Below, one piece after another: positions 10,777-28,715 of a stretch of DNA of 33,922 nucleotides (positions are counted from its first letter, which is position 1; each line of letters begins with the position of its first letter). The stretch lies in the IMG/VR virus record IMGVR_UViG_2630968639_000008; one strand, given 5' to 3'. Below the pieces are notes generated by a model. It made no database searches. It had not been told where the DNA came from and saw only the letters and a program-made list of their open reading frames with translations. The DNA comes from a virus. Its lineage: Duplodnaviria; Heunggongvirae; Uroviricota; Caudoviricetes. The position numbers were made by a program, and so were the translations under genes.

Positions 10777-12076
10777 TTACACTGGTGTGTTCAGCAAATC
10801 GTTAACGGCATCAGATGCCGGGTTACCTGCAGCCAGCGGTGCCGGTGCCCCCTGCATCAGACGATCCAGCGCAGTGTCACTGCGCGCCTGTGCACTCTGT
10901 GGTGCTGCGGCCAGAATGCGGCGGGCCGTTTCCACGGTCATACCGGGGGTTTCTGCCAGCACGCGGGCCTGTTCTTCGCGTCCGTGAGCCTCCTCACAGT
11001 TGAGGATCCCCATAATGCGGCTGTTTTCTGCCGCAACCGCTGCGGTGATCTGCGCGTTCACGTCCGGCTGCGCCGCGCTGGCGTTTTCGCCCTCCGTCGC
11101 TGGCACCACGTCAGTAACGTCAGCCTACGAAGCAGTGGCTGAAACAGTTGTTGATTGAGTCTCTTTGGTCATTCGCCCTCCTGAGAGACGGGATTTACGT
11201 GCATCCAGTGCATCACGCATGACGGTGATCGCATCGGTGCTGTTAACAAGTTCATCAGCCAGTCCGGCATCAATGGCCTCCTGACCGCTGTACACTGCAG
11301 CCTCGGTATCCAGCACAGCCTGCACGGACAGGCCGGTATATGCCGACACCTTCTGCGCAAACATCCGGCGGGTTGCATCCATCCGGGACTGCAGTGTCTC
11401 CCGGACGTCATCCGGAAGATGGCTGTAGGGGTTGCCATCCACCTTATGGCTGCCGCTGTAAATCAGCGTGATTTCCACGCCCTGTTTCTCCAGCGCAGCA
11501 CCGTAATTACTGTGAGCCATCATGACGCCGATGGAGCCTGTCCGGGCGGTCTGCGTGACCAGACGCCGGGAGGCGGCGCTGGCAAGCAGCTGACCTGCAC
11601 TGCAGTTCATGTCGTTGGCCAGCGCCCATACCGGTTTTATGTCTCGCACACGGGCGATGATGTCAGCACAGTCAAATGCTCCCGCCACCATCCCGCCCGG
11701 TGTGTCCATATCGAGCAGAATGCCGTCCACCATCGGATCGCTGGCAGCCTGTTGCAGACGGGCGATAATGCCGTTGTAACCGGTCATTCCCGAATACGGC
11801 TGCAGCGCCCGCGTCCGGCTGACCAGCGTACCGGACACCGGCAGCACGGCGATGCCGTTCATGACCTGATAACTGCGGGCCTGTCGTGGTCCGTCATCAT
11901 CACCGGATAACGCCAGCGCCGCGGGTGCCTCTCCGGCAGTCAGGCTGTCGCCGGACACCGCATCCGTCAGGCGACTGATCCCAAGCTGGCCTGCAAGCGC
12001 ACAAAAGAAAATCCGCGCATAGGCGGGTTCAAGCATCAGCGGCTCATTAAAAGCCATGCTGGCAATATGCGGGAGA

Positions 12077-12096
<20 letters not shown>
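10777..12096 (-). pseudogene. C: Prohead protease/scaffold gene C with nested Nu3, interrupted by a single in-frame TAG at 11127..11125
   Basis: GTG start at 12096..12094 preceded by GGAGGAG; the frame is otherwise continuous to the stop at 10777 (439 codons, lambda C length). Reading across the TAG gives ...TVSATAS*ADVTDVVPATEGE... Uninterrupted segments are 11125..12096 and 10777..11109. Would be functional only with amber suppression. Confidence 0.75.
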
Positions 12097-17268: not shown

Positions 17269-17562
17269 ATGAAAAAAATGTTGTTTTCTGCCGCTCTGGC
17301 AATGCTTATTACAGGATGTGCTCAACAGACGTTTACTGTTGGAAACAAACCTACAGCAGTAACACCAAAGGAAACCATCACCCATCATTTCTTCGTTTCG
17401 GGAATTGGACAGGAGAAAACTGTTGATGCAGCCAAAATTTGTGGCGGCGCAGAAAATGTTGTTAAAACAGAAACCCAGCAAACATTCGTAAATGGATTTC
17501 TCGGTTTTATTACTTTAGGCATTTATACTCCGCTGGAAGCGCGTGTGTATTGCTCACAATAA
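17269..17562 (+). CDS. bor: Bor lipoprotein (serum-resistance type lysogenic-conversion protein)
   Basis: Track ORF trimmed to ATG at 17269: MKKMLFSAALAMLITGCAQQ... has a signal peptide and lipobox (LITGC); 97 aa; antisense to the lysis genes as in lambda. Confidence 0.85.
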   Translation: MKKMLFSAALAMLITGCAQQTFTVGNKPTAVTPKETITHHFFVSGIGQEKTVDAAKICGGAENVVKTETQQTFVNGFLGFITLGIYTPLEARVYCSQ

Positions 17563-19336: not shown

Positions 19337-20434
19337 ATGAAAAAATTAACAGTGGCAATTTCTGCTGTAGCTGCATCAGTACTGATGGCGATGTCTGCTC
19401 AGGCAGCTGAAATTTATAATAAAGACAGTAACAAGCTGGATCTGTACGGGAAAGTTAATGCTAAGCACTACTTCTCCTCTAATGATGCAGATGATGGTGA
19501 TACTACTTATGCCCGTCTTGGCTTCAAAGGTGAAACCCAAATCAACGATCAACTGACTGGTTTCGGTCAGTGGGAATATGAATTCAAAGGCAACCGCGCT
19601 GAATCTCAAGGTTCCTCCAAAGATAAAACCCGTCTTGCCTTCGCTGGCCTGAAATTCGGTGACTACGGCTCCATCGATTACGGCCGTAACTACGGTGTAG
19701 CATACGACATCGGTGCGTGGACTGACGTCCTGCCAGAATTCGGTGGTGACACTTGGACTCAAACCGACGTGTTCATGACTCAACGTGCAACTGGTGTTGC
19801 AACCTATCGTAACAACGACTTCTTTGGTCTGGTTGATGGTCTGAATTTTGCTGCTCAGTACCAAGGCAAAAACGATCGTAGCGATTTCGATAACTACACT
19901 GAAGGTAACGGTGATGGCTTCGGTTTCTCTGCTACCTATGAATACGAAGGATTCGGTATCGGTGCAACTTATGCGAAATCTGATCGTACCGACACTCAAG
20001 TTAATGCAGGGAAAGTTCTTCCTGAAGTATTTGCTTCCGGTAAAAATGCAGAAGTTTGGGCCGCAGGTCTGAAATATGACGCTAACAACATTTACCTGGC
20101 CACTACCTATTCTGAAACCCAGAATATGACTGTATTTGCTGATCACTTCGTTGCTAATAAAGCCCAAAACTTCGAAGCTGTTGCACAATATCAGTTCGAT
20201 TTCGGTCTGCGTCCGTCCGTTGCTTACCTGCAATCTAAAGGTAAGGATCTTGGAGTATGGGGCGATCAGGACTTAGTCAAATATGTTGATGTAGGTGCAA
20301 CCTATTACTTCAACAAAAATATGTCTACTTTCGTTGATTACAAAATCAACCTGCTTGACAAAAATGACTTCACTAAAGCACTCGGTGTAAGCACTGATGA
20401 CATCGTTGCTGTAGGTCTGGTTTACCAGTTCTAA
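19337..20434 (+). CDS. OmpC/OmpF-family general porin (prophage NmpC/Lc-type), apparently intact
   Basis: 365 aa from ATG 19337 (track ORF starts upstream): signal peptide [29 protein letters not shown], porin beta-barrel hallmarks, C-terminal ...VGLVYQF; long AT-rich promoter region upstream; antisense to Q and S as in DLP12 nmpC. Confidence 0.85.
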
Positions 20435-20623: not shown

Positions 20624-21007
20624 TTAATTAGAGTTATTAACAACGATATCCATCTCTAACCGGATATCTAATGCCATTAACATCCCTTCAATTATGCCCT
20701 CAGCCTTCTGTAACCTTTTCCCGATATAACCATCAGAGCAGCAATGCTTACCTGCCAGTGACATGAATGTCATACCGACTACATAATAATCTACTAATAA
20801 ATCGTGCAAATCGCTGTTGTTCTTTTTCAGACGGGCCATGCACCCGCAAATGATCATCGCGTCATCGTCACAACATTGCGGGCGAGATTTTACTTTTGAA
20901 GTAATTAATCCCTTAAAACCGGCGGCAATGGACGACCAGGTCACATCTTCATGATTATTAGCCGCCCACGCTCCCCAACGCTCAAGAACCATCTGAATAT
21001 CACGCAT
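20624..21007 (-). CDS. Q: Late-gene antiterminator Q (phage 82 / DLP12 QuuD-like)
   Basis: Trimmed to ATG 21007 ([21 protein letters not shown]...), 127 aa, Cys-rich ([27 protein letters not shown]); upstream of the lysis cassette on the same strand. Confidence 0.7.
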
Positions 21008-21229
21008 CAACTTACTCCACAAAAATCAGACCAGAACGCCAATTACAAGCAAAAATCAATAAAACAGTATTAGTTGATTGTTATCTCTGACTTCATACTC
21101 CTGCTCCTGTCAGGGTTTTGGCGTAATTCCTCAGTATTCGGTAATCGGTCAAAACAGAACTGGGGAAACGATATAAGCGCAGGCGCATCCAGCGGTGGCG
21201 AAGAAGTTCTGCCATATAAAACTCAAACA

Positions 21230-21592
21230 TCATTCATCTCCCAGTTCAGTGATGGTCAGCTCCAGCTTTCCACCTTTGACAACCGGCATCTTCACAACGC
21301 GGTAATCAACGATCTGAGCATCATCCAGCCAGAAACCTGCTTTGGTGAGTGCGTCAAAAGAGGCTTTTTGTAGATTATCCAGGTCACGGCGACGGCGATC
21401 CGGCATGTGGCACTCAATGCGGATTTTCACAGGCATAGCCAGACCGATATCCAGCATTGAGCCTTTAATGATTCGGGCGACGTTATCGCGGTATGCCTGC
21501 CCTTCTGCGCTGATGTGCGTGCGCCCTCGATTATGGCGGTAGTAGCGGTTATTGCTCGGCGGCCAGGGTAGTGTGATGTGGTAAGTATTCAC
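21230..21592 (-). CDS. rusA: Holliday junction resolvase RusA
   Basis: 120-aa [29 protein letters not shown]... with the acidic catalytic region ([10 protein letters not shown]); matches recalled DLP12 RusA. Confidence 0.85.
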
Positions 21593-21879
21593 GCCTTAAT
21601 TACCCCCTCTTTCAGCCAGATAACCTGCGTTCTCGCCATACCTTCCAGCGCGCATTCTTTTGCATATCCAGCGTCAACAAAATGCGTGCGGCGGTCGATT
21701 TCGTCGTGGCAGGCAGAACATGCAATGGTGGCAATCAGGTCTGGCGGTTTCGTACCGGTGCCGCACAATCCAGTCAGCCGGATATGTGCCAGTACAGACG
21801 TTTCAGGGTTGCCATTACATACGCCAGGGATTCTTACCTGGCATTCCCGACCACGCGCTGCTTTTCTCAAATCAGCCAT
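21589..21879 (-). CDS. ybcO: YbcO-like nin-region protein (Cys-rich, putative nuclease)
   Basis: Trimmed to ATG 21879 with GGAGGAG upstream; 96 aa; CxxC...CxxC pattern; ATGA-type coupling with rusA. Confidence 0.6.
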
Positions 21880-22042
21880 GACTCCTCCTTGCTGCCAGTC
21901 GCAACCATTTTTTATCAACCAAGCTGGCGGTATATCCGAGCAGTGTTGGTATTTCGGATGGCTTCAGCTCAGGCTTACGCTTACGACGATTTGGTACTCT
22001 GTAGATGTGTCCGTTCATGACACGAATAAGCGGTGTAGCCAT
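21872..22042 (-). CDS. ninE: NinE-like small basic protein
   Basis: 56-aa reading from ATG 22042 (overlapping the ybcN stop as TAATG); C-terminal [10 protein letters not shown] resembles lambda NinE. Confidence 0.5.
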   Translation of the reverse strand: MATPLIRVMNGHIYRVPNRRKRKPELKPSEIPTLLGYTASLVDKKWLRLAARRSHG

Positions 22043-22497
22043 TACGCCTCCTGCTTGTCGCGGAGCTGCTGGAACTCGCAGCTCTGCGGAATAGTCAGAT
22101 GGCAACCAATATTCATCGCCCAGGCTTCAACCTTACACAGGAAGACATACATCTCTCCGGTATCAAGATCGGAGGTATGGCGTAACGACTGGATAGTGGT
22201 GATATCACCGGTTACGACATCAACCAGGTCTTTGGTTTCATAACCGAGATATGTGTGTTTGAGAGCATCTTTTACCCAAGCTGGAGTGGCGAACGTTTTA
22301 CCCTTGCTGATGAGGTATTCACTGATTTCGCTGTACCACATGTGGCTGAGTGCATTCTGGGAAAGACTGCGTCTCTCGCGCCACGGTTTAAGCACCATGC
22401 GAAAGCATTTGCCGTCCTCCAGATAAGGCTGGATCTGCTGGCCGATAGCGGTGAAGTTGCCGCGATGTAATTTGATGCCGTCTTGTGAAAGGTTCAC
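22042..22497 (-). CDS. ybcN: NinB / YbcN-family protein
   Basis: 151-aa ORF with the RSLSQN motif, as in the NinB family; first conserved gene right of the AT-rich island. Confidence 0.6.
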
Positions 22498-22616
22498 GCT
22501 TCACCTCCGCAGAGGTCAAACGCTGGATGCAAAGAATTGCAGGTGCATTTCTGCATCTGTGAAGGGAGAAGAGAGTTTGGATTGTATGTGCGCATAAACG
22601 TCCCCGTTTAGCGCAG

Positions 22617-22649
22617 AAGTCACCGGAGGAGTTCAAACTCCGGTGACTT
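22617..22649. repeat. Perfect 12-bp inverted repeat (AAGTCACCGGAG ... CTCCGGTGACTT) with a 9-nt loop
   Basis: Seen directly; lies at the junction between the nin genes and the AT-rich cargo; no clean U-tract on either strand. Confidence 0.7.
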
Positions 22650-22718
22650 AATTATGACAAGTTGATTATTGAAAATCAAAAGTCATTTAAACAATAATGA
22701 TACCCCGCAAGAGATTTC

Positions 22719-23120
22719 TTATTTTAACTCATAGATCAGACAGTCAACGATTTCTAAACCATTTACCATAGAATTAGAAACGCGAACTTTACCATCGTTG
22801 ACTCTAGCAAATCCTTTTAACATTTTATAAATAAAAGCTGAATCCCCCTTAGCCTCAATTGCTTCTAATGGTATCGGCTTATACTTTTTTGATATGCTAT
22901 TTCTATTTATCTCACTGATTTTTCTATATATTTCTGCCGGTCCACGTTCTGAGAAGTCACTGATAACTAAAATATATCTCCAAGATAGATCTGGGTAATA
23001 AAACCACATTGCAGCATCAATAGTTAAATTCTGTAACTTGAGTTTTTTTAATAAAAATTGACCTGAGAATTCCATATCTTTTGTCAACTCTCTGCCGATT
23101 ACCAGTGTGCTTTTACCCAT
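22719..23120 (-). CDS. Hypothetical protein, downstream partner of the HEPN-like gene (overlapping, translationally coupled)
   Basis: 133-aa ORF; ATG at 23120 with GGAG 9 nt upstream; overlaps the upstream gene by 22 nt; AT-rich codon usage; no motif recognised. Confidence 0.5.
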   Translation of the reverse strand: MGKSTLVIGRELTKDMEFSGQFLLKKLKLQNLTIDAAMWFYYPDLSWRYILVISDFSERGPAEIYRKISEINRNSISKKYKPIPLEAIEAKGDSAFIYKMLKGFARVNDGKVRVSNSMVNGLEIVDCLIYELK

Positions 23121-23515
23121 TTCAAAACTCCAGAATTTTGGTCACCTACAGCATCAAACAATTGTTCGGCCATAGCTTTACTTATGTTATTGTCGTATCT
23201 AAATTGCTCGCTCCAGTCTTTAACGACCGACCAGTTAATCTCCAACGAAACATCATTTTTTGCGTCAGCAATCAAAATTTGATGTAAGTTGGCAATTTTG
23301 AGAAGTTGCGACAAATCATGAGTATATGAATCATTTACGACTTTTTTGTTTGGAAACTCATGTTGTAAAAATGACTTGGCAATACAGGCCTTCAATGCAC
23401 ATTCAACTGCATACCCACAAAGATAATATGCACCATGAAAAAAGCCATGATCAAGCAAGCATTTGGCCTCATTAAGCCTAGTGTCAGATAATGCTTCAAG
23501 GTCGTTTTTATTCAT
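23099..23515 (-). CDS. HEPN-domain-like protein (candidate toxin or abortive-infection nuclease)
   Basis: 138-aa ORF; helical pattern GAYYLCGYAVECALKACIAKSF, THDLSQLL and C-terminal RYDNN resemble HEPN four-helix-bundle proteins; AT-rich; TATAAT sits immediately upstream of the ATG. Confidence 0.55.
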   Translation of the reverse strand: MNKNDLEALSDTRLNEAKCLLDHGFFHGAYYLCGYAVECALKACIAKSFLQHEFPNKKVVNDSYTHDLSQLLKIANLHQILIADAKNDVSLEINWSVVKDWSEQFRYDNNISKAMAEQLFDAVGDQNSGVLKWVKAHW

Positions 23516-23934
23516 ACAATTATAACTTGAATTATCCTAATTTTTATGATTATACCCTTATCAGGTATGATGTAGGAACTGAAAACAATATTGGATATCA
23601 TTTTCGGTATTTCTCTGCAAATTCCAGCCCACAGGATCTCGGTGTACAATCTGTCGCTGATCGCGCAAATTTAGGGTCAATCACTTCATTTTTTGCATCA
23701 AACCCTCACTAACATCGAACGATTATAGTACAAGTAGTGTTCTTGACTTCTCATTAAACCGTCAGCATTCAATTAATTACAAAATACTAGCGGCATTTCT
23801 CTCCCGCAACTTTATTACAGCCGTTCAGAACGTAAATGCGTCAATACTCGAATCAACTGATCATCCTGCCACGACTGAAATCTCAAATAGGCCGTTTCTC
23901 AAGTAAGAGATTTTGAATGCATTATTGGCTACTG

Positions 23935-23962
23935 AAATAAAAAACCCAGCGCCAACTGGGTT
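23935..23962 (-). terminator. Rho-independent terminator after the secreted-protein gene
   Basis: Minus strand: stem AACCCAG / CTGGGTT with loop TTGGCG, followed by TTTTTTATTT; 17 nt downstream of the stop at 23980. Confidence 0.6.
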
Positions 23963-23979
23963 CATATGAAATTTTTTTG

Positions 23980-24474
23980 TCATTTCCAATTGCAAGACTG
24001 TGAAATTTTTTCCACAACCTTATCAATCTCAGACAAGTCAAACTCAACTACTTGCATAGTTGATCCATAAGGTTCAAACCCAAAAATAGCTTTTTTATGC
24101 TTAGCCAAGGTCTTTATAAATTGTATTGGTTGTGGAGCAAATGCAGAATCACCGCCTTCCCCACCACCCCAAACACTCTTGACCGGCTTTCCGCCATCTA
24201 ACCGCACTGTAATTCTTGGGTTGTCCGAACCCATATAATCATTGAATGATAAATAGGCATCTGTTTTGTTATCACTACAACGCAACACCAGTGAAGTTGC
24301 ACGATCAGTACCTGCTTTGTTATATGAATCTGGTGATAAATTAAGAGCCACAAAGTCAGTCTGGTCAGTCATTTTATTTATCTCAGACTTTGTTATCCAC
24401 GGCCCTAACTTCTCTACACCAGCATTTGCTGTAAACGAGGCACTTATGACAAAGGCTAAAATAAATTTTCTCAT
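23980..24474 (-). CDS. Hypothetical secreted/periplasmic protein (moron)
   Basis: 164-aa ORF with a signal peptide (MRKFILAFVISASFTANA/GVEK), AGGAGA RBS 8 nt upstream, own terminator; AT-rich. Confidence 0.6.
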   Translation of the reverse strand: MRKFILAFVISASFTANAGVEKLGPWITKSEINKMTDQTDFVALNLSPDSYNKAGTDRATSLVLRCSDNKTDAYLSFNDYMGSDNPRITVRLDGGKPVKSVWGGGEGGDSAFAPQPIQFIKTLAKHKKAIFGFEPYGSTMQVVEFDLSEIDKVVEKISQSCNWK

Positions 24475-24620
24475 AACCCTATCTCCTTGGCTTCAAAGAA
24501 CTAAATATTATCAAGTCTCTTGCCACTAGAAAACCCACTTTATTTCCAAACTCTGATGGCATTCCTGAAAATCCGCTTCATACTCACTTGCCCCGCCCTA
24601 TCATCCTGAGTAGCTAACCG

Positions 24621-24794
24621 TTAAACAAACGTTCGCCAGACCTTACCATCAATGACCAGGATTCCTGCACGCGCCATTTTAGCTGCTGCCTGATTTATGC
24701 AGGTTACTGTCACACCTGTTGCCGCAGCAACGTCCTGCGCACAGAAGCTCTTATGCGTCCCCAGGTAATAAATAATTGCCTCTTTGCCCGTCAT
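24621..24794 (-). pseudogene. ren: Truncated ren-like gene (57 codons)
   Basis: ATG at 24794 overlapping the P stop; hand translation MTGKEAIIYYLGTHKSFCAQDVAAATGVTVTCINQAAAKMARAGILVIDGKVWRTFV then stop; matches the N-terminal part of lambda Ren as I recall it (full length about 96 aa). Below the track length cutoff. Confidence 0.5.
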
Positions 24795-25492
24795 ACACTT
24801 GCTCCTTTCAGCCCAAACTTAGCTTTGATTTCTGCGATCTTCGCCAGAGCCTGTGCACGATTTAGAGGTCTACCGCCCATGACAGGAAGCTGTTTTACTG
24901 GTTCAGGTATCGCCTCACCACGGTTAATTCGCGCGGTCATACAGGACAGTTCATCGGCAGCCTTGCGCCGTAATTCCGCATCAGGAAGCGCATTGGCCCG
25001 CATGTTCTGGTACAGGTTGGTAACCAGCCAGTAGTGCGCGTTTGATTTCCATGGATAAGACTCTGCGTCCGGATACAGGCCACGCTTCCGGCAATACTCG
25101 TAAACCATATCAACCAGCTCGCTGGCGTTTGGCAGCCCGGCGGTAACGGATGCTTCTTCCCGGCACCAGGCAACAAACTGCCCGGGTGATGGCAGGAATG
25201 GTCGATTCTGCCGACGGGCTACGCGCATTCCTGCGTTAACCTGTTCCATTGTGGTGATCCCGTTTTCCCGGAAAGCCAGAACCCACTGGCGGCGGATTTC
25301 GTTCAGTTCGTTCTGATCCCGGTTAGCCAGGCTCGCAGGGAAAGTTGCCAGTAACTGGCTGAACACACCGTTGATGATCTGCGCTACCTGCTGTACCTGC
25401 GGCTTTTCGTCGTACTGTTCCGGCATATTGTTGGCGATCCGGCGCATCTGCTCACGGTCAAAGTTAACCATCTGTGCGGCGATGTTTTTCAT
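24791..25492 (-). CDS. P: Replication protein P (DnaB helicase loader)
   Basis: 233-aa ORF matching lambda P in length and sequence. Confidence 0.92.
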   Translation of the reverse strand: MKNIAAQMVNFDREQMRRIANNMPEQYDEKPQVQQVAQIINGVFSQLLATFPASLANRDQNELNEIRRQWVLAFRENGITTMEQVNAGMRVARRQNRPFLPSPGQFVAWCREEASVTAGLPNASELVDMVYEYCRKRGLYPDAESYPWKSNAHYWLVTNLYQNMRANALPDAELRRKAADELSCMTARINRGEAIPEPVKQLPVMGGRPLNRAQALAKIAEIKAKFGLKGASV

Positions 25493-26418
25493 AAATCCAC
25501 CCCGTAAATCCAGTCAGTGTTCGTCAGGTCGAGTTTTGGTTTGCCGGCTGTCACGCCAGCCTGTTGCTTGTTTCGGTTGATTTCGAGCTGGGTCCACTTG
25601 TCGCGGAGTTTGGCCGGACTCAGCACGTTACCGGACCAGAAGTTGTCCTGGCATGCCCAGCGGAACAGCACGCACATGTCGCGGTGGTTACGTCCGTCAC
25701 GTTCACGCATCAGGCGGATATCGTTAGCCCACCCTGCAAAATTCGGTTTTCTGGCTGATGGCGCGATGGTCTTCACCATGTCAAACATCCACTCTGCGGC
25801 GGTCAGGTCTTCTGCTGTCCCCCACTTGCTGCCACTCTGAATTGCAGCATCCGGTTTCACCACAGGAAGGTCGTTTTCTGGCTGGTCAGAGGATTCGCCA
25901 GAATTCTCGGACGAAAAAGGTTTTATATTGTCTTTTGTTAGTTTGTCTTTTGTGTTTACCTGATTCGGGTAAACGCCTTTACCTGATTTGGGTAAACTTT
26001 TCTTACCTGATTCAGGTAAATTTACCTCTTTCAGGTAAACTTTATTTTTCTTACCTGATTCGGGTAATGTTGACCATTCACTGACCACATTATTAATGCC
26101 GATATTTCGCCCGCTCTGAATAAGAATCCCACGCTTTACCAGAACGCTTTTTGCAGCAGAACACTTGTGCGGCAATATCCCGGTCAATTCGGAAAGTTGC
26201 TCGTTGCTCACCCAATCCAGTCTTTTATTAAAGCCATATGTTTTGCGCATGACAGCCAGGAAGACCAGAAGCTGGTGCTGTGTTAATCCGGCCAGCATCA
26301 CAGCTTCCAGCAACTCATTTGCAATGCGCGTATAACCATCGTCGAGATCTGCCACGCGCCGCTCCTTTTGTGCCACATCCGGCACTGGAAAATTGAATAT
26401 CTCAGCAGTGTTTGCCAT
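25489..26418 (-). CDS. O: Replication initiator O (lambda-like C-terminal domain, divergent N-terminal origin-binding domain)
   Basis: Trimmed to ATG 26418 (GGAGG upstream): MANTAEIFNF...; C-terminal ...KWGTAEDLTAAEWMFDMVKTIAPSARKPNFAGWANDIRLMRERDG...TNTDWIYGVDL matches lambda O; iterons lie inside the coding region. Confidence 0.85.
   Translation of the reverse strand: MANTAEIFNFPVPDVAQKERRVADLDDGYTRIANELLEAVMLAGLTQHQLLVFLAVMRKTYGFNKRLDWVSNEQLSELTGILPHKCSAAKSVLVKRGILIQSGRNIGINNVVSEWSTLPESGKKNKVYLKEVNLPESGKKSLPKSGKGVYPNQVNTKDKLTKDNIKPFSSENSGESSDQPENDLPVVKPDAAIQSGSKWGTAEDLTAAEWMFDMVKTIAPSARKPNFAGWANDIRLMRERDGRNHRDMCVLFRWACQDNFWSGNVLSPAKLRDKWTQLEINRNKQQAGVTAGKPKLDLTNTDWIYGVDL
25956..26067. repeat. 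Origin of replication: five 17-bp palindromic iterons (TTACC-N7-GGTAA) with adjacent AT-rich region 25921-25955
   Basis: Iterons at 25956-25972, 25979-25995, 26003-26019, 26022-26038, 26051-26067, inside O; an AT-rich tract follows in the O reading direction, as in ori-lambda. Confidence 0.75.
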
Positions 26419-26504
26419 AATTCCTCCCGCAATGAGTGTGTTACGATTTGCACCTGAAAGTCGGTTCTGTTCGCGCAGACCGGCTTTCGCCATTTCCGAA
26501 CCTG

Positions 26505-27050
26505 TCATATTGCCCCCAGCATGGTGGTGACCATCGCCATCAGTGGACCAGCCAAATCCGGGTCCACACGAAACATCGACACAATGCCTTCACTCATCTC
26601 CTTCAGTTTCTGGTGGCGTGGTGCGTTGAGAATGACAGCCTGTTTTGCCTCACTGAGTTCCTTTTCCATTTCAGCCAGCCGAGCCATGTAGCTATCCTGC
26701 TCAACCAGGTGGCCGCGATATTCCAGCGGTAGTACCGCCAGAATTGCCGGGGTCAGTTCACGCACGTTATTTCGGTATTTTTCAGAATCGAATTTGTTAT
26801 CGAGGAAGCGGAACAGCTTCTGGCGTGCACGGCTGACATCATCAGGGAAATCGATGGTGCCGCCGCCCTGCTCCCGATACTCATTCACAATGAGTGCGGC
26901 AACAACATCCTGATTATCTGCAGCCGACCAGGCGCGAACGGCATCACGGATTTTTTCGTGGCCTGGCGCCTGTTTTGTTTGAGAACGATTTATCACCGCA
27001 GTCGGGCTAAATCCGCTAGTCTGTTGGTATGTAAGTGGTTGCATAGTCAT
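26505..27050 (-). CDS. Hypothetical protein in the cII position (possibly YdaT-family)
   Basis: 181-aa ORF between cro and O on the early-right strand; not lambda CII-like in size or sequence; family assignment is a tentative recollection. Confidence 0.4.
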   Translation of the reverse strand: MTMQPLTYQQTSGFSPTAVINRSQTKQAPGHEKIRDAVRAWSAADNQDVVAALIVNEYREQGGGTIDFPDDVSRARQKLFRFLDNKFDSEKYRNNVRELTPAILAVLPLEYRGHLVEQDSYMARLAEMEKELSEAKQAVILNAPRHQKLKEMSEGIVSMFRVDPDLAGPLMAMVTTMLGAI

Positions 27051-28334: not shown

Positions 28335-28715
28335 ATGAGAAAAATCCTAATCGCTGCCATGATGGCATCTCTATTGGCTGGGTGTGCTTCTTCAGGCAAC
28401 CAGCAACTCAAAAATGAAACTGAAACTAGTGTCCAGTCTAAACTTCAGGAAGGTAAAACAACCAAGAATGAGGTTAAATCTTACTTTGGTTCTCCTGATG
28501 CTGTTTCATATACTGACAGTGGAAACGAGATCTGGAAGTACGCCTTTGCAAAAGTAAAAGTTAATGGCACCACTTTTATTCCATTCTATGGATTATTCCA
28601 TAATGGAACGAACGGTACGAAAAAAGAACTTACTATTCTTTTTAACGATGACACGATTAAGAAATACACAATGTCAGAAACCCAAATAAACTCGAAATCA
28701 GGTTGGGCTGACTGA
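28335..28715 (+). CDS. Hypothetical lipoprotein downstream of cI (rex-position moron)
   Basis: 126 aa; signal peptide and lipobox (LLAGC); AT-rich; same strand as cI; followed by a terminator; mid-region resembles a BamE/SmpA_OmlA-like fold only loosely. Confidence 0.6.
   Translation: MRKILIAAMMASLLAGCASSGNQQLKNETETSVQSKLQEGKTTKNEVKSYFGSPDAVSYTDSGNEIWKYAFAKVKVNGTTFIPFYGLFHNGTNGTKKELTILFNDDTIKKYTMSETQINSKSGWAD

Follow-up and report, generated by a model that had tools for sequence, protein, structure and literature searches.

The window analyzed here, a stretch of 33,922 nt from the IMG/VR virus record IMGVR_UViG_2630968639_000008, is a lambda-like prophage of E. coli with an early-right region of the DLP12 type, whose relevant genes are located on the minus strand. 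The interval between its ren locus and the genes ylcH and ybcN very probably represents an exchangeable AT-rich accessory slot, which in the window holds a composite of two independently circulating modules, with the dead tail of a foreign ren in one of them (module A). An open reading frame (ORF) of 57 codons at the right-hand side of this slot (24,621–24,794, minus strand) had been regarded in a preliminary description, which was made from the sequence alone, as a lambda-type ren truncated by an inserted island. It is, instead, the front half of a disabled ren that was inherited together with module A, and an insertion in this prophage is not its cause. The homology map, the step in ren divergence, the distributions of the modules and the conservation of a linker at the left edge of the slot were all directly observed.

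The ORF itself is present as it had been described. It starts with an ATG and overlaps the stop codon of the preceding gene P by ATGA (24,791–24,794), which is the same overlap as in lambda (P 39,582–40,283, ren 40,280–40,570). Its product indeed begins like lambda Ren, as residues 1–55 are about 84% identical to the lambda protein and match phrog_142 (“Ren-like exclusion protein”) with an E-value of 1.2e-19, and the gene can be aligned to lambda ren. Lambda Ren has about 96 aa and provides resistance to Rex exclusion; a study by Toothman and Herskowitz from 1980 is said to have established that Ren acts against this exclusion. The reading frame in the window comprises ren codons 1–57 and ends at codon 58, which is TAA (24,621–24,623) instead of the TAC found in intact alleles. 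However, alignments with the intact ren alleles of lambda, Lambda_2E9, PhiR26_1 and PhiR30_1 revealed that ren-homologous sequence extends for about 100 nt beyond this stop codon, to approximately 24,526–24,529. This ren tail (24,526–24,628, minus strand), which accompanies a TagO-like gene, contains a second lesion, a deletion of 1 nt near 24,566–24,567. Mending of both lesions yields a frame that reads ...WRTFV(Y)RLATQDDRAGQVSMKRIF(x)ECHQSLEIKWVF and ends with a TAG at 24,526–24,528, giving a length of about 91 codons versus 96 in lambda; the C-terminal end of the tail-type ren in its repaired form is ...FVYRLATQDDRAGQVSMKRIF.ECHQSLEIKWVF. Independently, the Prokaryotic Genome Annotation Pipeline (PGAP) describes 24,526–24,794 as “protein ren” with a frameshift and an internal stop, and the pseudogene status of ren is thus already flagged by standard annotation. 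Intact ren alleles encode 94–100 aa, and a reading frame of this length that includes the conserved C-terminal 40 residues was not found at the ren locus of the window. The view that the island had replaced a part of ren does therefore not hold, since the rest of the gene persists as a divergent, disabled 3′ end down to 24,526 and at most its last few codons were ever lost. As the last 8–10 codons vary from phage to phage in intact alleles, the usual right-hand junction of the cargo seems to lie at ren codons 88–90, where the ren tail of the window also ends.

The ren head (nt 1–166, codons 1–55; 24,629–24,794, minus strand) consists of lambda-type sequence. It is 88–92% identical to ren of lambda, PhiR26_1 and PhiR30_1 and to renD of E. 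coli K-12, at a synonymous divergence (pS) of 0.20–0.27, whereas from ren nt 166 onward the identity to the same alleles is only 65–70%. This step corresponds to window position ~24,629 and is no more than about 8 nt away from the stop codon of the ORF. The ORF is thus short because of the TAA at codon 58, two codons past the joint between head and tail. The right-hand boundary that had been placed at the ORF stop is correct insofar as a genuine mosaic joint exists at about 24,629, but DNA that is not ren, i.e., the cargo proper, starts only at about 24,525. Within the tail, synonymous divergence is nearly saturated (pS 0.73) at a nonsynonymous divergence (pN) of 0.27–0.29, and this synonymous excess over the neutral expectation is significant for the 32 codons concerned (p = 0.003–0.005). 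Such a synonymous bias suggests that the tail diverged mainly while it was still coding and that it was disabled later. The ren tail hence appears to be the 3′ end of a distantly related, formerly functional ren and not to have arisen by decay of a lambda-type ren at this site. The relationships of head and tail are also discordant. Among the window, C21 and IdasGreatGrand, the tails show 95–99% identity, while the heads share just 90–92% with each other, and the head of IdasGreatGrand is 97.6% identical to K-12 renD. This implies different histories of the two parts and is the pattern that would be expected from repeated homologous recombination within the ren head.

A decay in situ, in which a lambda-type ren gained a nonsense mutation and then drifted neutrally toward AT downstream of it, with no joint inside ren, would account for the lower GC content of the tail (44.6% versus 50.6% in the head) and for its two inactivating lesions. 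Neutral decay would, however, not produce the observed combination of pS and pN in the tail. As pS furthermore jumps at a single point, and as head and tail are discordant in their relationships, this explanation is very improbable.

The 57-codon form appears to be a fixed and widespread allele and not the outcome of an event in this prophage. Of 5426 complete E. coli genomes, the set in which all module distributions were counted, 84 contain the stretch that comprises the ren tail and the TagO-like gene (23,900–24,640), 81 of them with an identity of at least 99%, and nearly all records among the matches listed have annotations of both “TagO” and “protein ren” within the matching stretch. The same ORF of 174 nt, followed by the same gene of 495 nt, is also present in the isolated phage IdasGreatGrand. 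The ORF product also matches phrog_7054, a profile of 57 positions, from end to end (E-value 4.6e-41), and a search of 5.8 billion proteins yielded many clusters of 57-aa proteins, all of which end with ...WRTFV; one of these clusters comprises 261 contigs and bears the NCBI name “MarR family transcriptional regulator.” The reservation of the preliminary description that a length of about 57 aa might be natural in this lineage was hence partly justified.

This wide distribution at constant length, as well as the presence in an isolated phage, could indicate that the 57-aa product has a function of its own as a short, stand-alone and Ren-derived winged-helix domain under selection, which would make the ORF a gene and not a remnant. 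Translational coupling to P via the ATGA overlap and a dN/dS ratio (nonsynonymous to synonymous substitution rates) of 0.12–0.35 among the three truncated heads would fit with this idea. Conservation of the head is, however, explicable by repeated recombination with intact alleles, and the constant length reflects only the stop codon that all these copies share by ancestry. Besides its annotation as a pseudogene, it also has to be considered that in intact Ren purifying selection acts on the 40 C-terminal residues (pN 0.025 and pS 0.22 between the tails of lambda and PhiR26_1), which therefore probably matter. A function of the short protein is thus regarded as unlikely, and the 57 codons are better explained as the front half of an inherited, disabled ren.

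The shift in base composition that had been noted at the end of the ORF is real, with a GC content of 36.6% for 22,691–24,525 versus 49.5% in the left and 51.6% in the right backbone. It does not, however, start exactly where the ORF stops: in a profile of 50-nt windows, GC remains at 0.44–0.54 down to about 24,550 and lies at 0.32–0.38 only thereafter, about 70 nt beyond the stop codon. Likewise, an AT-rich variable cargo of about 1.8–2.0 kb does exist between ren and the nin-type genes, in agreement with the proposed island of about 2 kb, but it is made up of two modules and not of one. Module A (~23,822–24,628) would comprise the dead 3′ end of a distant ren and a TagO/VasI-like gene that is equipped with a terminator-like hairpin and possibly also with its own promoter. 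Module B (~22,691–23,900) consists of the final 86 nt of a rha-like gene and two overlapping genes for a HEPN-domain protein and its partner. Module B was detected in 263 of the 5426 genomes, usually together with an adjoining rha-like gene, and the combination of both modules as in the window in only eight. In a collinearity map based on BLAST of the window against six comparators, C21 (P, dead ren and TagO-like gene, with other DNA thereafter) is collinear with window positions 23,822–26,600, and GF47 (P, other DNA, rha/P22AR-like gene, HEPN gene and partner, ylcH) with 21,001–23,900. By these BLAST end points the two homologies overlap by 79 bp (23,822–23,900, minus strand). Positions 23,815–23,900 correspond to the last 86 nt of a gene with a rha/P22AR C-terminal domain, and the P22AR gene of GF47 ends at the equivalent of 23,815; genomes that contain only the TagO module match 23,822/23,830–23,900. 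The 79-bp stretch common to both types of modules is probably the crossover point at which modules A and B were joined.

No features of an island of the transposon or insertion sequence (IS) type were found. Neither the ORF list nor Pfam or PGAP indicated a transposase or recombinase within 22,691–24,525, and no terminal inverted repeats are present at its two ends, as both arms of the 12-bp inverted repeat that had been noted on the left lie on one side, in the backbone. The sole repeat that spans the island is an imperfect inverted repeat (10 of 11 nt; 22,707–22,717 and 24,513–24,523) with its arms slightly inward of the two ends of the AT-rich block. This repeat was judged to be coincidental, because its two ends belong to modules which are found separately in other genomes. 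An Rfam scan of 22,300–24,900 returned nothing relevant.

On its left side, the variable slot ends at 22,681–22,690, as defined by BLAST end points against five different cargoes, with homology ending at 22,681 for K-12 DLP12, at 22,682 for PhiR30_1, at 22,683 for PhiR26_1 and at 22,690 for both C21 and IdasGreatGrand. The perfect 12-bp inverted repeat is located beyond this junction at 22,617–22,649 (minus strand). Its arms, AAGTCACCGGAG (22,617–22,628) and CTCCGGTGACTT (22,638–22,649), are separated by a loop of 9 nt, and it is the only perfect hairpin-type repeat of at least 12 bp in the 33.9-kb window (mean of 0.04 in 200 shuffles of the window). The existence of this repeat was thus described correctly. 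Its proposed role as the other edge of the island has to be rejected, as both arms lie in the backbone, 32–41 nt beyond the left junction. The same stem-loop occurs upstream of ylcH-ybcN in K-12 DLP12, PhiR26_1, PhiR30_1, C21, GF47 and IdasGreatGrand, all with differing cargo, and it is therefore a part of the conserved backbone and not an island terminus.

These data also bear on a single insertion of about 2 kb in this prophage, which would have deleted the 3′ part of ren together with the ninA side of the nin region, with ren codon 57 and the 12-bp inverted repeat as its two limits. There is indeed an AT-rich block close to the expected size, similarity breaks off within 8 nt of the stop codon, and the inverted repeat is not random. 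Yet the ren sequence goes on for about 100 nt, with E-values and an independent PGAP call that argue against a spurious similarity; the block is composed of two modules with separate distributions; the inverted repeat belongs to a backbone shared with relatives that harbor other cargo, including K-12 DLP12; and 84 genomes as well as a free phage share the same truncated allele. Nothing was replaced on the ninA side of the nin region either, since ylcH, ybcN, ninE, ybcO, rusA, ylcG and quuD are all intact and the spacer between ren and ninB measures just 73 bp in lambda. A single insertion is thus highly improbable.

A comparison with related prophages that lack the cargo of the window, which had been suggested in the preliminary description, instead supports an exchangeable slot, as the same flanks enclose other cargo in K-12 DLP12, PhiR26_1, PhiR30_1 and PEB20-37-A. 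In K-12 DLP12 the interval is filled by emrE-ylcJ-ybcK-ybcL-ybcM (~4 kb), in PhiR26_1 by PD-lambda-1 (renamed SNIPE), a Rha gene and a hypothetical gene, and in PhiR30_1 by genes for an acyltransferase and a lipoprotein. The shortest filling found, that of PEB20-37-A, contains two small ORFs on about 750 bp. The GC content of all these fillings is 36–41%. No ren is annotated in GF47; translation in one frame past the initial 13 nt of ren gives KILRYLKKYSVYCSFEMLRKQELPR, which is similar to the N-terminus of Ren (GF47 sequence L009, 2307–2400, directly after P). This may be another very divergent and broken ren remnant, which was brought by a different cargo module.

The resemblance is closest to the renD-ybcN region of DLP12, in which a ren homolog lies at one end and the same stem-loop at the other, followed by ylcH, ybcN, ninE, ybcO, rusA, ylcG, quuD and then a porin gene. 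There, ren is also a pseudogene and the cargo is AT-rich as well (36.3% GC). The two prophages differ in the identity of the cargo and in the way ren was lost, as renD is broken by IS3 whereas the window has a stop codon and a frameshift. In addition, K-12 lost O and P, both of which are kept by the prophage in the window. The likeness to lambda is confined to the start of the locus, where ren also directly follows P; in the window the ORF of 57 codons with its disabled tail takes the place of the intact gene, and where lambda has a 73-bp spacer with tR2 (hairpin and T-run), 1.8 kb of cargo are found. In lambda, cro-cII-O-P-ren forms one transcript from pR, which ends at tR2 (PMC3640518).

Exchange of the modules would take place by homologous recombination in the conserved flanks, which are the ren head and P on the right side and the linker of promoter-like element, stem-loop and ylcH on the left side, with the 79-bp stretch of the rha 3′ end as an additional exchange patch in the middle. 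A single crossover in this patch between a phage of the C21 type and one of the GF47 type would lead to exactly the arrangement of the window. P (24,791–25,492, minus strand; Pfam Phage_lambda_P, E-value 4e-61; PGAP “replication protein P”), whose DNA is 92–97% identical to that of lambda, PhiR26_1, C21 and others, is the conserved backbone on the right, and the ren head probably serves as the right-hand homology anchor.

Several points weigh against this interpretation. We infer the mechanism, the promoters and whatever function the cargo or the 57-aa peptide may have, and recombination was deduced from the mosaic pattern and not observed. With ren joined to the linker as query, which matched roughly 3,600 E. 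coli genomes, no empty ren-ylcH site was found and the minimum filling is ~750 bp, so that the slot is deduced from the diversity of its cargo. An intact tail-type ren was found neither when 50,697 phage records were searched by tblastn with the repaired tail peptide nor when the repaired 89-aa protein was searched against the 5.8 billion proteins. The once-functional origin of the tail is hence read from the substitution pattern over 32 codons only. The tblastn search retrieved IdasGreatGrand, with the same dead tail, and otherwise only matches below 60% identity. The lone read-through form among the 5.8 billion proteins was P0028 (84 aa), in which the TAA is changed to an Asn codon and the frameshift is kept; it originates from one ENA contig of 894 nt. 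Finally, the promoter scan as a whole was not enriched over shuffled sequences, i.e., its calls are consistent with chance.

The linker at the left edge of the slot was present in every relative examined. The first backbone feature past the junction is a promoter-like element (22,651–22,679, minus strand) with the hexamers TTGATT and CATAAT, a spacing of 17 nt and a TG extension (scan match 9/12). As its hexamers are better conserved than its spacer among eight backbone copies, a role as promoter may be assumed. The adjacent stem-loop is part of a segment of 101 nt (22,590–22,690) with a predicted RNA folding energy of −40.3 kcal/mol (z −7.5). In an alignment of ten copies, every backbone copy, that of K-12 DLP12 among them, retains a stem of 8–12 bp. 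The right arm does not vary. In the left arm C-to-T is the most frequent substitution and leaves G-U pairing intact in the RNA of the minus strand, and one internal linker copy exhibits a swap from G-C to C-G in the stem. An intrinsic terminator of the tR2 type was considered for the stem-loop and rejected, as it has no T-run on either strand and was not listed by the terminator scan; it also has no sequence similarity to lambda tR2. Our best guess is that it represents a 5′-leader structure of a ylcH-ybcN transcript. A second hairpin (22,590–22,614, minus strand) encloses the ribosome-binding site and the ATG of ylcH, and the stretch at 22,494–22,614 is identical in eight of the ten copies. 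The ylcH homolog (33 codons; 22,494–22,595, minus strand) is a PGAP coding sequence that overlaps the start of ybcN, in the same layout as in K-12 ylcH-ybcN. The gene ybcN itself (22,042–22,497, minus strand), named by PGAP and assigned to the NinB family at a Pfam score below the family cut-off, is 94–97% identical to its relatives and is the first gene of an intact nin block of the DLP12 type.

Second, internal copies of this linker, with 78–88% identity to window positions 22,590–22,690, were found in the cargo arrays of three phages, namely in GF47 (L009, 3061–3198), IdasGreatGrand (L007, 2591–2728) and PhiR26_1 (L010, 4592–4772). Each of them lies upstream of a rha/P22AR-like gene, which suggests a reusable cassette boundary or an expression signal. 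To our knowledge, a linker (~140–180 bp) recurring inside the cargo arrays of other phages has not been described previously. It is conceivable, though doubtful as a joint claim, that this linker is a recurrent cassette boundary and that the non-canonical pair of HEPN protein and partner is an uncharacterized anti-phage or toxin-antitoxin system.

Within the cargo, module A carries the gene of a TagO/VasI-like protein of 164 aa (23,980–24,474, minus strand; phrog_1848, E-value 3e-70; PGAP “TagO”). The match to VasI (PF11319, E-value 5e-6) is borderline, as its score of 26.7 bits compares with a cut-off of 26.5 and only the C-terminal 108 residues are covered. The neighborhood of the gene is that of a prophage and not of a type VI secretion cluster, and the hydrophobic N-terminus of the protein resembles a signal peptide. 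It is an accessory (“moron”) gene of this module. A terminator-like hairpin, with a stem of nine pairs followed by TTTATTT, was found by the terminator scan at 23,942–23,963 (minus strand), 17 nt past the stop codon. Upstream of the gene, direct reading of the sequence revealed an extended −10 element TGATAATAT (24,505–24,513, minus strand), followed by a ribosome-binding site AAGGAG; the consensus scan did not list this −10 element, which is a possible promoter of the TagO-like gene.

Module B encodes a HEPN-domain protein of 138 aa (23,099–23,515, minus strand), which matches Pfam HEPN (PF05168; 27.8 bits versus a cut-off of 22, E-value 3e-6), the PADLOC candidate PDC-M28A (E-value 1.8e-7) and phrog_5737. 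A motif search of this protein did not reveal the Rx4-6H motif of catalytic HEPN RNases, and its Acinetobacter homolog does not differ from the E. coli protein in the segments where this motif would be expected. A perfect TATAAT, within GGGTATAATCAT (region 23,516–23,620, minus strand), precedes the HEPN start codon by about 35 nt; it was not listed by the consensus scan because of its poor −35 match and is a possible promoter of the HEPN pair. The partner gene (133 aa; 22,719–23,120, minus strand) overlaps the HEPN gene by 22 nt, and no terminator-like site follows the pair. For the partner protein, Pfam, PADLOC, PHROGs and NCBIfam returned no family beyond a PHROG of unknown function. Its AlphaFold2 model is confident (pLDDT, predicted local distance difference test, 93.5), and its best structural neighbors are minimal nucleotidyltransferases (MNTs), with which it shares only a distant resemblance. 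NCBIfam held no name for any of the cargo proteins, sequence searches of the PDB with HEPN protein and partner gave nothing significant, a Foldseek search of the PDB with the partner gave no match, and no mention of PDC-M28 was found in the literature.

In Acinetobacter prophages, HEPN gene and partner occur with the same overlap of 22 nt beside lysis genes and an integrase gene, with the HEPN proteins being 59% identical (82/138). Both genes thus clearly belong together and move among prophages. The pair resembles HEPN-MNT systems in that a small HEPN protein is combined with a small overlapping partner with MNT-like structural neighbors, and in forming a unit that is conserved across genera and resides in prophages. 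It differs from canonical members in its motifs and gene order, as the partner does not show the full set of features of an MNT antitoxin, i.e., a nucleotidyltransferase fold with G[SG] and DxD residues and a gene located upstream of HEPN. A role as a toxin-antitoxin or anti-phage pair appears plausible.

The organization of the slot corresponds to what is known from other lambdoid phages. Juhala et al. (2000) reportedly described “morons” and the exchange of mosaic modules in lambdoid phages, and the underlying modular theory is said to go back to Susskind and Botstein. The window shares with this pattern the extra genes between otherwise adjacent ones, their deviant composition, recurrent junctions and one terminator-like site, and no essential difference is apparent. 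The TagO-like gene and the HEPN pair are absent at this site in lambda, PhiR26_1, PhiR30_1, K-12 and PEB20-37-A, and their base composition is distinct (36.6% versus 50–52% GC), as would be expected for morons. The slot also resembles accessory and defense loci of prophages such as the P2/P4 hotspots, in which conserved flanks enclose variable content (PMC9122126). PD-lambda systems, too, originate from lambdoid prophages (PMC9519451), PD-lambda-1 having been renamed SNIPE (PMC13190303). Unlike in such loci, no validated defense gene is present in the cargo of the window.

Chromosomal segments of E. coli STEC409 and ETEC1746 match the window at 100% identity. After a cI-like repressor gene on the plus strand, the order on the minus strand is a cro-like gene, a YdaT-domain gene, O, P, the ren locus, the TagO-like gene, the HEPN gene, the gene of the 133-aa partner, ylcH, ybcN, ninE, ybcO, rusA, ylcG and quuD, followed by a porin gene on the plus strand. 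This nmpC-like porin gene (19,337–20,434), which is broken by IS5 in K-12, is intact here. At the position of lambda cII lies the gene of a YdaT-domain protein of 181 aa (26,505–27,050, minus strand; PGAP “toxin YdaT domain-containing protein”), and phage records name the protein at this position “cII.” The structural module is lambda-like and, as mentioned, O and P are retained. The gene for the head protease/scaffold (S49 family peptidase; ~10,777–12,096, minus strand) is a pseudogene with an internal stop according to PGAP, which may block particle production despite a gene set that looks complete. Further accessory genes on the plus strand encode a serum-survival lipoprotein of the iss/bor type (17,269–17,562) and, beside the repressor, a BamE-like lipoprotein (28,335–28,715).

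Taken by itself, the ren locus of the window adds one more mosaic joint and one more pseudogene to a lambdoid prophage, which is a well-known kind of organization. It illustrates, however, that a short ORF which seems to be cut by an insertion can owe its length to a nonsense codon within a swapped, divergent gene end, and that a striking inverted repeat beside an island can be part of the conserved backbone. If the linker at the left edge is indeed a recurrent cassette boundary, it could be both an expression signal for whatever follows it and a homology patch for the shuffling of accessory or defense cassettes. The interval between ren and ylcH/ninB, which harbors SNIPE/PD-lambda-1 in one relative, is a place where accessory genes of E. 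coli prophages, including possible anti-phage genes, may be sought, with the HEPN/partner pair and the TagO-like secreted protein as candidates.

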